From NCBI GenBank assembly GCA_003559395.1, contig PWLL01000097.1, positions 1-12,675 on the forward strand: DNA of 12,675 nt, written 5' to 3'. Position 1 is the stretch's first letter. Each line of letters starts with the position of its first letter. A program made the translations under genes and the position numbers. Of the stretch, positions 8,542-12,675 are shown piece after piece. The stretch comes from Candidatus Iainarchaeum sp. (GTDB lineage Archaea; Iainarchaeota; Iainarchaeia; Iainarchaeales; CSSED10-239). The notes beneath the pieces were generated by a model, which saw only the letters and a program-made list of their open reading frames with translations, was not told where the DNA came from and ran no database searches.

Positions 8542-11500
8542 CTAGGTTCTATAAACATCTAATAGCAACTTTGCTTTTTCTAAGATACCTTCTTTTGTCA
8601 TAAAATAAATGTATCTTATGTAGGTTGGTTCTCTTCTTTTATTTCCAAACTCTATATCTATGTGATTGTTGGTTATTCTTGCATACATGTTGTTAGTATC
8701 ATTAGAGAACATATCTTCAAGATCTTCATAAAATAATATTTGTTTTTGTTCTTTTGTTACAAAGTATTTTGGAGATGATGTTGAAACTAAAGAAACATCT
8801 TTATCATAGTGTACTCTTGTTTTTAATAATAAATCATCTTCACAAGAAGAGATGACTAAGGAGTTGTTGTCATAAGACAAAGTAAGTTCTGTCTCTCCTA
8901 TTGTGTAGAAGCTGTTGGGGTCTGACTGGTTGTTATATTCTGTTTTTATCCATTCTGGAGAGCGTGCAAGGTTTGAAATTTTTAAAGAATCTATAACTCC
9001 ATCAAATTGTCTGTTTGCTGTAGGATGATTTCCCATTCTTGAATCACTACCAGGAGTTCCTGCAATAAGGGTTGTTGACCCAAAATCAACCCCATCTTGA
9101 CTATCATAATTTCCATCTATATAAAAAATTCTTTTGCTGTTTGTATAATCTGTGATACCTACTATATAATACCATTCATCTTCATTAATTGTGCCAATAG
9201 ATGTAGATATTTGTGAACTGTCACCCACTTCGCTTCTTCCAGAAATTAATATTTCGTTATTTGAGGTTATTCTAAAAGTAAATCCAACAAATGATGAGTT
9301 TATATATTCGAACCAGATATAATTTTCGTTAATAAATTCATTTCCTTTTATCCATGCTGAGACCATAATTGCAGAAGTTCCATCTAATATTGAAAGTATG
9401 GTATTTTGTCCTAAACTAACATAATCATTACTTCCGTCATACTCTTGAGCTTTTCCAATAACTCCATCTACTTCTGTTGGTTCGTTAACCGCTTTTTTTG
9501 TTCCATGACTTTCAAAAGAAGTGCTGTCTTTTATTGTTGTTGCATTATAATCGTCTTTATGCCAAACACCAACATACCTGTTACTCCAAACATTATGTGT
9601 TCCATATTCGTGATCTTCTGGATAATCTTCTAAAGAAGGAGAACCATAATAAACATAAAAACTAGTATCTTCATCATATTTAAGAACATCTGCTTTAAAC
9701 CAGACTTCTCCAGTATTTGCATTTGTATCAATATTTACTATTTCTCTGGGAAGTTCTGTTAAATTTTGATTAGTAATTCTTATATCTCCACCATCATCTT
9801 TAACATTTTCAAAAAAAGATTCAGGAAATAAACTTAAATCAAGATATACAGGAAAATCTGTTATATGTGTAGTTCCATCTACTTTTTCTTTATCTATAGT
9901 TATTTTTATTCTGTTTTGTATATCTTGTATTTCACAAAAGTTTTCTTCTTGAGTGTTTTCTTTAAATAAAGAAAAAGAAACTGTGTTGTTTTGATCATCT
10001 TCTAAAAATATTTTTTTACATGATTTTGTTTCTAGTTTTGTGTCTTCTAAATCTCCTATTGTGTAGAAGCTTAAAGGAGTTGATTGGTTGTTATATTCTG
10101 TTTTTATCCAATTGTTTGTTCTTGGAATTGATGACATTCTTGCAAAATCTATACTTCCATTTAAGTAATATGTTTCTAAAGAACCATATCTTCCAAATCT
10201 TCTATCTGAAAAAGAACTAGCTAATGTACCTGTTACTTCTTGTTCTCCAACATATGTTCCATTGATATATCCTTTTTTGATAAGCCCATCAAAAGTAAAT
10301 CCTACGTAATGCCATTCTCCATCAATTAATCCAGTGCCGTGATTTGATACAAATCTACCATCTGTTGTTACTACACCTACTCTTATTCCTCCGGCAGCAG
10401 GAATACTTATTTCTAAAGAATGTGGCCCTAAAATTATATGATATCCCCCTGGCGGCACACCATTTGCTTTAAACCATCCAAATGCAGATACTTGAGTATT
10501 ATATCCTAAATCATTTGGCAAATCAATATAATCGTCTTGCCCATCATATTCTTGTGCTTTTCCAAGAACTCCTTCTACTTCTGTTGGTTCGTCAATTGCT
10601 TTTTTTGTACCATGATTTTCAAAAGAAGTACTGTCTTTTATTGTTGTAGCATCATAATCATCTTTATGCCAAACACCAACATACCCGTTACTCCAAACAT
10701 TATGTGTCCCATAATCGTGATTGTCTGGATAATCTTCTAATAAAGGATTATTAAAATAAACATAAAATATTGTATCTTCATCATACTTAAGAACATCTGC
10801 CTTAAACCAAACTTCTCCAGTATTTGTATCTGTATCAATATTTACTATTTCTCTAGGAAGTTCTTTTATATTTTGATTAGTTATTCTTATATCTCCACCA
10901 TCATCTTTAACATTTTCAAAAAAAGATGCAGGAAATGAACTAAGATCAAGAAATACAGGGAAATCTGTTATATGTGCATTTCCATCTACTTTTGCATGAT
11001 CAATAGTTATTTTTATTCTGTTGTTTGCTATTAAGTAATCAGAACAATCTTCTTCATTTATTGTTACAGAAAAATCATTAACATCAACAGAAAGATCATC
11101 TTCCTTTGATTTATATGTCCAAAACTCTGTAGTTGATGGAAATAAAACACTTCTTAATAAATTGTTTTCATTTCTTATAAAATAGAATGGTTCGTTATCA
11201 GTGTTAGTTGTTAATATATTATCATTTGTAAATTCATAATTGATATTTTTATTTATTTTTTTAAGATTTGTATCTATCTTATTTTCATAAATATTAAATT
11301 TAAAATGTTCGCCAGAGATTTCTTTTTCTGTATAAAGTATTTCAAAAAAACTATTTACGTCTGATTGGTTGTTATATTCTGTTTTTATCCAATCTTCAGA
11401 TCTTGCAATAGTTGAAATTCTGGCTTCATCTATTGAACCATTAAAAAACCTAGAGCTTCTTCCACCACCAATTTGAATGTTTCCTGCTTGTGTTAGTTGT

Positions 11501-12675: not shown

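Follow-up and report, generated by a model that had tools for sequence, protein, structure and literature searches.

The stretch of DNA analysed here, called the window throughout, comprises positions 1 to 12,675 of contig PWLL01000097.1 (assembly GCA_003559395.1, Candidatus Iainarchaeum sp.), and about a third of it is filled by a single minus-strand gene that runs off its far end. The visible product of this gene, the window protein, consists of the pieces of a small orphan scaffold separated by three complete DUF2341-LamG cassettes. It is probable, though well short of certain, that this protein is a multivalent lectin-type surface adhesin, in which an N-terminally anchored jelly-roll scaffold carries three rigid DUF2341-LamG units with different heads and is functionally tied to a filament system encoded next to it. 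DPANN archaea and bacteria of the candidate phyla radiation (CPR) live attached to other cells, and the way in which they recognize their hosts is largely unexplained. Adhesins of this kind have already been suspected in DPANN archaea, and the window protein is most likely a useful example of them and not a new class.

Three cassettes nested in a colinear scaffold

The minus-strand frame is uninterrupted from position 12675 to the stop codon at 8542-8544, that is, over 1378 codons encoding 1377 residues. The first ATG (12561) corresponds to residue 39 and the 38 sense codons that precede it reach the window edge, as a preliminary description of the sequence had stated when it placed the true N-terminus of this single open gene outside the window. 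Comparison with an ortholog led to the same conclusion. The ATPase encoded in the window has a homolog, P0070, 75% identical, on a 119-kb contig of assembly GCA_015657915.1, where the gene order is that of the window (MetAP, two membrane proteins, ATPase, four small genes and opposite-strand Sec61-beta) and the position of the large gene is occupied by P0184, a cassette-free protein of 515 aa with no match among Pfam or NCBIfam models. Homology between the window protein and P0184 extends from visible residue 2, aligned with P0184 residue 157 (BLASTP, 41% identity over 119 aa). Since this homology starts upstream of ATG 12561, that ATG is internal and the gene continues past the window edge. 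By orthology, about 156 N-terminal residues, including a hydrophobic helix, would be missing from the window protein, whose full length is predicted to be about 1530 aa. No membrane-spanning segment occurs in the 1377 visible residues (highest 19-residue Kyte-Doolittle mean 1.22), in agreement with the absence of a hydrophobic anchor reported earlier. The exact 1377-aa product was absent from the protein records searched, and neither tRNA genes nor Rfam families were found in the window.

All four non-cassette segments of the window protein are colinear with P0184 in BLASTP comparisons. Therefore, the three cassettes are clean insertions in a scaffold of ~515 aa and not a head-to-tail array. 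The anatomy of the large gene is as follows:

8542..12675 (-), whole visible reading frame, 1377 aa plus stop; 5' end cut by the window edge
12316..12675 (-), scaffold segment 1, residues 1-120 (residues 2-120 against P0184 157-275, 41% identity, E 1e-22); holds the internal ATG 12561
11314..12315 (-), cassette 1, residues 121-454, from hidden Markov model (HMM) domain coordinates, Pfam and cassette alignment
11956-12312 (-), cassette 1 DUF2341 β-sandwich, residues ~122-240
11347-11955 (-), cassette 1 LamG jelly-roll, residues ~241-443
11056..11313 (-), scaffold segment 2, residues 455-540 (P0184 279-363, 41%, E 2e-14)
10012..11055 (-), cassette 2, residues 541-888, from HMM and alignment; at the family's hot spot for insertions
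10675-11028 (-), cassette 2 DUF2341, residues ~550-667
10066-10674 (-), cassette 2 LamG, residues ~668-870
9928..10011 (-), scaffold segment 3, residues 889-916 (weak BLASTP match to P0184 367-394, E 0.003)
8890..9927 (-), cassette 3, residues 917-1262, from HMM and alignment; between two conserved scaffold cysteines
9568-9921 (-), cassette 3 DUF2341, residues ~919-1036
8908-9567 (-), cassette 3 LamG, residues ~1037-1256
8545..8889 (-), scaffold segment 4, the C-terminal domain, residues 1263-1377 (residues 1263-1376 against P0184 391-513, 36%, E 5e-21); followed by the stop at 8542-8544

The presence of three DUF2341 and three LamG copies, recognized in the preliminary description, was recovered with Pfam well above the cutoffs: Laminin_G_3 (PF13385) scored 167.4 bits (cutoff 27.6, E 3e-49) and DUF2341 (PF10102) 46.9 bits (cutoff 23.4, E 4e-12), each in three stretches. 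A purpose-built HMM placed the DUF2341 starts at residues 122, 550 and 919, and each of the three cassettes spans the full cassette HMM. The repeats were defined by motif, HMM and MAFFT alignment, since whole-protein self-BLAST showed only the diagonal; at the DNA level, three-copy repeats are visible within the reading frame. The modules had been called tandem, but they do not follow each other directly: their starts lie 428 and 369 aa apart, with scaffold pieces of 86 and 28 aa in between.

Scaffold segment 1 forms part of the concanavalin A (ConA)-like jelly-roll of the scaffold, as seen in the P0184 model and its Foldseek match to a GH16-like jelly-roll. Cassette 3 falls inside a putative disulfide loop. 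P0184 carries two cysteines 16 residues apart, C392, invariant in the family alignment, and C408, nearly invariant, and these correspond to C914 and C1278 of the window protein. Cassette 2 is in turn flanked by Cys544 and Cys886. Both pairs are putative disulfide staples.

Constant DUF2341 halves and variable LamG cores

Identity between the three cassettes is distributed very unevenly along their length:

DUF2341 and the start of LamG, up to G-K-A-Q-x-Y-D-G: 68-82% (aa), 78-88% (nt)
LamG core of ~130-150 aa: 21-23% (aa), nt not informative
Last strand, W-I-K-T-E-Y-N-N-Q-S: 57-70% (aa), 68-72% (nt)

The two halves also differ in their closest relatives. The best matches of each DUF2341 half are its sibling cassettes, external proteins reaching 40-46%, whereas the sibling cassettes are absent from the top seven matches of each LamG core, all of which come from proteins of other organisms. 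Hence the cassettes are chimeric. The DUF2341 half is common to all three, recently duplicated or homogenised, and the LamG cores differ in ancestry. Exact matches of up to 45 nt are found between cassettes. The same contrast of a constant DUF2341 half and a variable LamG core is seen within 20 other multi-cassette proteins, with ratios of 1.7-4.7, and it therefore characterizes the class as a whole.

Across its whole length, the cassette-2 core shares 44.6% identity with a protein (P0036) apparently from a CPR bacterium that reads UGA as Gly. The closest relative of this core is residues 626-789 of P0036, which shows Trp at ~16 positions where the window protein and the LamG consensus carry Gly (for instance KWWYH for PGGYH and DWNWH for DGEWH). 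This pattern suggests that P0036 comes from a UGA=Gly genome (code 25, Gracilibacteria/Absconditabacteria-type) translated with the wrong code, in which case the true identity would exceed 50%.

Modelling of a single module, recommended in the preliminary description, was carried out on cassette 2 (AF2, 31-sequence alignment) and gave a structure with pLDDT 87.9 and pTM 0.89, consistent with the DUF2341 β-sandwich and the LamG jelly-roll forming one rigid unit. Foldseek returned LamG-like jelly-rolls, and the PDB matches cover the LamG half only: the carbohydrate-binding domain 4 of AbnA, a GH43 arabinanase, the receptor-binding Hc domains of botulinum and tetanus toxins, and the jelly-rolls of NTNHA (E 3e-10 to 1e-8). 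The sole PDB match at the sequence level was the LamG domain of an 'S-layer domain-containing protein' (4qvs_A, E 2e-4). A Pfam Agenet match (29.6 bits, cutoff 27; residues 991-1015, nt ~9631-9705) covers 25 residues inside the DUF2341 half of cassette 3 and is probably spurious. Two viral proteins of BFVD, A0A516M692 and H9YT22 (783 and 763 aa), match the entire cassette model (TMq 0.76 and 0.71, identity up to 24%), and the DUF2341-LamG cassette is thus present in viruses as well, possibly as a receptor-binding module.

A diversity-generating retroelement was considered as the origin of LamG variability and discarded, because identity between the cores is as low as 21-23%, their external relatives differ, and neither a reverse transcriptase nor a template repeat is present in the window. 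A tentative proposal, which we hold to be possible but rather doubtful, is that the scaffold serves as a display platform. Cassettes would be inserted into β-hairpin loops and duplicated within the gene, and their LamG cores would be swapped by recombination at the DUF2341 and W-I-K-T-E-Y-N-N-Q flanks, with donors shared across domains of life, as the closeness of the cassette-2 core to P0036 would suggest. If so, it would represent a modular, horizontally fed system for fast re-targeting of host or surface recognition in episymbiotic microbes, and the constant DUF2341 half with a variable LamG core, found family-wide, would be its signature.

The scaffold family and its conserved position

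When P0184 was searched exhaustively with HMMER, only 13 proteins, of 421-1096 aa, were found among 1.84 billion representatives. A word-indexed search with the scaffold alignment found only P0184, but this method is limited on AT-rich low-complexity sequence and its result is no evidence of absence. The genomic position of the scaffold gene, including the convergent Sec61-beta gene, is kept in L004 and in five further loci (L007, L009, L010, L013 and L014, of which L009 and L010 are near-identical copies from different samples). The orthologs in the five further loci measure 961 aa (two LamG-like insertions, no DUF2341), 610 aa, 671 aa and 655 aa (one DUF2341). DUF2341 or Laminin_G_3 was detected in 8 of the 10 longer family representatives scanned, and an insertion of 69-266 aa follows P0184 residue ~357, the site of cassette 2, in 10 of the 13. 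Insertions at the sites of cassettes 1 and 3 are found in the window protein only, which is the longest family member found.

The window cassettes gave no BLASTP match at E 1e-3 to the insertions of other scaffold-family members. Their vertical descent from the family insertions, given this result, is unsupported, although at the 22-25% identity found within the family such a descent could go unnoticed. These comparisons are compatible with a history in which a canonical cassette was acquired from another source and then spread within the gene.

All syntenic orthologs start with M-[EQ]-[YH]-I-D-W-I-[VIM]-S followed by a hydrophobic helix, and M1, Y3, D5, W6 and F13 are invariant across the family. 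The AF2 model of P0184, built on the 13-sequence alignment (pLDDT 78.1, pTM 0.74), shows helices at residues 2-27 and 33-47 and is all-β thereafter. The insertion sites map to loops of this model, for example to the hairpin between strands 359-363 and 366-370. Foldseek with the model returned jelly-rolls of the GH16 type (GH16 β-glucanases, TMt 0.69) and of the toxin-Hc type, and neither pilins nor propellers.

The locus offers a natural experiment, in which one scaffold gene at one genomic position carries 0, 1, 2 or 3 lectin-type modules across related genomes. It makes testable which part confers binding specificity, whether DUF2341 acts as a pedestal or binds a partner, and whether cassette content follows host range. 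It also shows that 'giant' surface proteins can arise through nested domain insertion into small orphan proteins, which matters for annotation and for the detection of orthologs.

In relatives, the scaffold gene is immediately preceded, on its own strand, by two more conserved orphan genes (L013:3210-5554, L009:3297-5615 and L004:2044-4386). They encode a coiled-coil protein of ~276 aa and a single-transmembrane protein of ~500 aa, and in L013 and L009 they are tightly packed with the scaffold gene. Their counterparts may lie beyond the window edge and may share the same apparatus.

The adjoining type IV filament-like operon

The large gene had been described as lying next to a type IV filament-like operon. 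The ATPase and the prepilin-like proteins that justify this name do adjoin it, but the large gene is not part of their transcription unit, as Sec61-beta stands between them. The genes on this side of the large gene are listed below (TM, transmembrane):

8376..8540 (+), Sec61-beta, 54 aa, from translation and PF03911 gene calls in L002, L004, L007, L009, L013 and L014
3934..8218 (-), type IV filament-like operon of five genes
7292-8218 (-), gene A, TM protein, 308 aa
6923-7285 (-), gene B, pilin-like, 120 aa, M-T-K-S-I-E followed by a hydrophobic stretch
6419-6913 (-), gene C, 164 aa, prepilin-like N-terminus ...K-G-Y-T-F-I-L-I
6059-6412 (-), gene D, coiled coil, 117 aa
3934-6033 (-), FlaI/PilB-type ATPase, 699 aa, Pfam T2SSE E 1e-31
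2622-3941 (+), orphan of 439 aa, N-terminal signal, C-terminal TM segment followed by a lysine-rich tail
1457-2590 (+), multi-TM orphan of 377 aa
18-548 (+), orphan of 176 aa, signal-like N-terminus, C-terminal TM segment, weak Ig-like matches

Sec61-beta is convergent with the large gene, and this arrangement is kept in all syntenic relatives. The ATPase and the two adjoining prepilin-like proteins form a neighbourhood kept in six genomes. In each of the six, the N-terminus of protein C (~160 aa) resembles that of a bacterial prepilin (K-G-[FY]-T-[YF]-I-I), and the orthologs of protein B (~120 aa) start with M-[TI]-K-S-x-E and continue with a hydrophobic stretch. Neither has a Pfam or NCBIfam match; both are probably pilins of the neighbouring system. 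The ATPase, whose homologs are named FlaI or type II/IV secretion ATPase, carries a very lysine-rich N-terminal extension of ~340 aa before the T2SSE core (residues 344-559). A genome scan with this ATPase found one distant Candidatus Iainarchaeum locus, 53% identical, with another organisation and a different surface protein of 1093 aa, a locus informative for rough taxonomy only.

No prepilin peptidase gene was found in the window. The 377-aa multi-TM neighbour was examined as a divergent TadC and rejected, since six orthologs gave no Pfam T2SSF signal and no similarity to a bona fide T2SSF protein was seen. A T2SSF gene follows immediately after the ATPase in L011, the more distant locus from Iainarchaeum. 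The three orphan envelope proteins at 18-548 (+), 1457-2590 (+) and 2622-3941 (+) are in conserved synteny across relatives, in which polysaccharide flippase and glycosyltransferase genes also adjoin the ortholog of the large gene.

The archaeal context proposed in the preliminary description agrees with these genes, and it is DPANN-like. The named relatives of the ATPase, 51-58% identical, are assigned to 'archaeon', Candidatus Iainarchaeum and Diapherotrites, and G+C content is 25-32%; hence a DPANN origin, with kinship to Iainarchaeota/Diapherotrites, is likely. The same population is represented, at 99.9% nucleotide identity, in Logan runs SRR490128 and SRR490129 and in JGI 3300000563 (contig SL_3KL_010_SED).

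A probable multivalent adhesin and the alternatives

The arrangement described above can be accommodated in one mechanism. The lineage-specific scaffold of ~515 aa would be held by its N-terminal hydrophobic helix, just outside the window, the rest being an all-β ConA-like jelly-roll, and the three full DUF2341-LamG cassettes would be accommodated in loops between scaffold β-strands. Within each cassette, the DUF2341 β-sandwich would act as a constant pedestal and the LamG jelly-roll as the variable binding head. Because the three heads are unrelated in sequence, three ligand specificities would be displayed on one scaffold; glycans or glycoproteins borne by a host cell or a surface are the likeliest ligands. 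The position of the gene beside the filament operon is fixed, and therefore both would probably cooperate in attachment, to a host among other possible surfaces. An adhesion factor had been the suggestion of the preliminary description, and it is still the best reading; the link between DUF2341/LamG proteins, pilus loci and adhesion has, however, been proposed before (PMC4858521, PMC5498576, PMC10266531).

Several observations weigh against an adhesin of this design. The ligand binding and the localisation of DUF2341-LamG proteins are in general inferred, and LamG folds occur also in enzymes and in structural envelope proteins. The ortholog N-terminus (MEYIDWIVS...) has neither a canonical signal peptide nor a class III cleavage motif, lacking [KR]-[GA], so that the predicted secretion and topology derive from the hydrophobic helix only. 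The missing N-terminus was not recovered: the exact 39-mer from the window edge was unmatched in the genome and metagenome contig collections, and a protein-guided metagenome scan with the scaffold gave only an already-known 5.2-kb contig. Within the scaffold, segment 3 is defined by a single weak match (E 0.003). As for cooperation with the filament, the large gene is a separate transcription unit because the opposite-strand Sec61-beta intervenes, and no gene for a TadC/T2SSF platform protein is present in the window, the neighbouring system being incomplete as seen.

The alternative that survives best, although we consider it unlikely, sees in the protein a large subunit of pilin type or an adhesin of the tip, built into the neighbouring filament, with its N-terminal helix in the filament core and not in the membrane, as in the model of PMC4858521. 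The FlaI-like ATPase and the two prepilin-like proteins encoded next door, kept in six genomes, fit such a subunit, and the ortholog model, with a long N-terminal hydrophobic helix, a second helix and a β domain, has a pilin-like layout whose first residues (M1, Y3, D5, W6 and F13) do not vary in the family. The same role has been proposed for the DUF2341 proteins of Methanococcus pilus loci (PMC4858521), and transposon insertions in one such gene caused a transformation defect (PMC10133366). However, the ortholog lacks the [KR]-[GA] motif that protein C of the operon has, Foldseek with the scaffold gave jelly-rolls and no pilins, transcription is separate from that of the operon, with Sec61-beta in between, and neither a prepilin peptidase nor a TadC gene is in the window. 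A tip adhesin of the PilY1 type is not indicated either, as the window protein had no Pfam match to the PilY1/PilC β-propeller or to vWA at E up to 1.

It is improbable that the ConA-like folds belong to a structural, S-layer-associated protein of the cell envelope or to a glycan-processing enzyme instead of an adhesin. The S-layer annotation of the only PDB sequence match (4qvs_A), the resemblance of the scaffold model to GH16 β-glucanases, the match of the cassette to a domain of a GH43 arabinanase, and the polysaccharide flippase and glycosyltransferase genes beside the ortholog in relatives would fit such a function. Yet the arabinanase match is to the non-catalytic domain 4, and Pfam gave no glycoside hydrolase or lyase match, only the non-catalytic Laminin_G_3 and DUF2341. 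Moreover, orthologs that range from 515 to ~1530 aa with variable cassette content would be unusual for a lattice protein or an enzyme and are typical of recognition proteins.

Very improbable is an assembly artefact, in which reads containing the repeats but belonging to different genes or strains would have been joined into a chimera. The exact matches between cassettes, the absence of the exact protein from other records and the break of three same-population assemblies at 8774-8910, at or just before cassette 3, could be invoked for it. However, a chimera would hardly keep both the P0184 order of the scaffold segments and an open frame throughout, the assembly is anchored in each cassette by a LamG core of ~400 nt found in that cassette alone, and insertions at the cassette-2 hot spot recur in other members of the family. 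The three independent assemblies (L001, L002 and L003) all break within 140 nt of one another, at the C-terminal edge of cassette 3. The shared break was probably caused by the intragenic repeats, strain-level variation in the large gene being the alternative cause.

Comparison with known systems

The preliminary description did not recognize the triple-cassette architecture as that of a described protein, but repeated cassettes proved not to be unusual. The search returned 63 homologs, many with 2-5 directly tandem DUF2341-LamG cassettes: five in P0001, four in P0005 and exactly three in six proteins (P0003, P0006, P0009, P0011, P0014 and P0015). The sources of the multi-cassette proteins are annotated as Promethearchaeota, Hodarchaeota (Asgard), Methanomassiliicoccales, Thermoplasmatota and bacteria, and the repeated-cassette architecture is very common among uncharacterised proteins. 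These proteins share with the window protein the ~340-aa cassette, with W-x-x-R-x-K-I-T-I ... D-F-P-V ... W-I-x-T-E-Y-N-N-Q, as well as the conserved DUF2341 half and the divergent LamG core. Whole-cassette identity to those of the window is 31-35%, and the best whole-protein identity only 32%. The two designs differ in arrangement. In the uncharacterised tandem proteins the cassettes follow each other directly, head to tail, with a period of ~345-355 aa and usually after a signal or TM segment, whereas those of the window protein are interleaved with an unrelated orphan scaffold that also exists cassette-free. The gene for P0003 is one of five consecutive paralogs on a bacterial contig, a local expansion of this class of protein (L015:1824-17971; the paralogs, of 972-1146 aa, each have DUF2341/LamG cassettes, and genes for DNA polymerase III delta and TsaE adjoin them).

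The DUF2341 proteins of archaeal type IV pilus loci (arCOG03508 and others) are comparable in genomic setting. Makarova, Koonin and Albers (2016) proposed that those of Methanococcus pilus loci are adhesins (PMC4858521), and transposon insertions in the DUF2341 gene MMJJ_08210 of the epd locus gave the transformation defect in a screen (PMC10133366). These proteins are likewise large, are encoded beside a pilus-type ATPase and prepilin-like genes and have the same proposed role (PMC4858521). The window gene differs from theirs in being a separate transcription unit with no TadC gene in the window, and in that its DUF2341 domains are always paired with LamG and inserted in another protein.

LamG proteins are expanded in the small-genome DPANN archaea, where some are tied to pilus loci, and a function in recognizing the host has been suggested for them (PMC5498576, PMC10266531). 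The multi-LamG proteins of Mia14 'ARMAN' (PMC5498576) and of the nanohaloarchaea SVXNc and BNXNv (PMC10266531) are, like the window protein, large and secreted or membrane-bound, with several ConA-like/LamG domains; the comparison is by description only, and the reports mention neither pairing with DUF2341 nor nested insertion into a scaffold. Giant DUF2341 proteins have also been noted in Patescibacteria (PMC11809585). The likeness to the Hc(N) domain of clostridial neurotoxins, to NTNHA and to AbnA domain 4 is at the level of the fold: the LamG half superposes over ~210-240 columns with an identity of only 12-18%, the window protein has no toxin or hydrolase domains, and its DUF2341 half has no counterpart in those PDB matches.

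Against this background, three findings are new as far as found. Full cassettes are nested as insertions in the scaffold of a very small orphan family, which holds its place beside a filament operon; an ortholog exists that has no cassettes at all; and the contrast between constant DUF2341 halves and variable LamG cores, the latter differing in ancestry, has been put in numbers as a rule.

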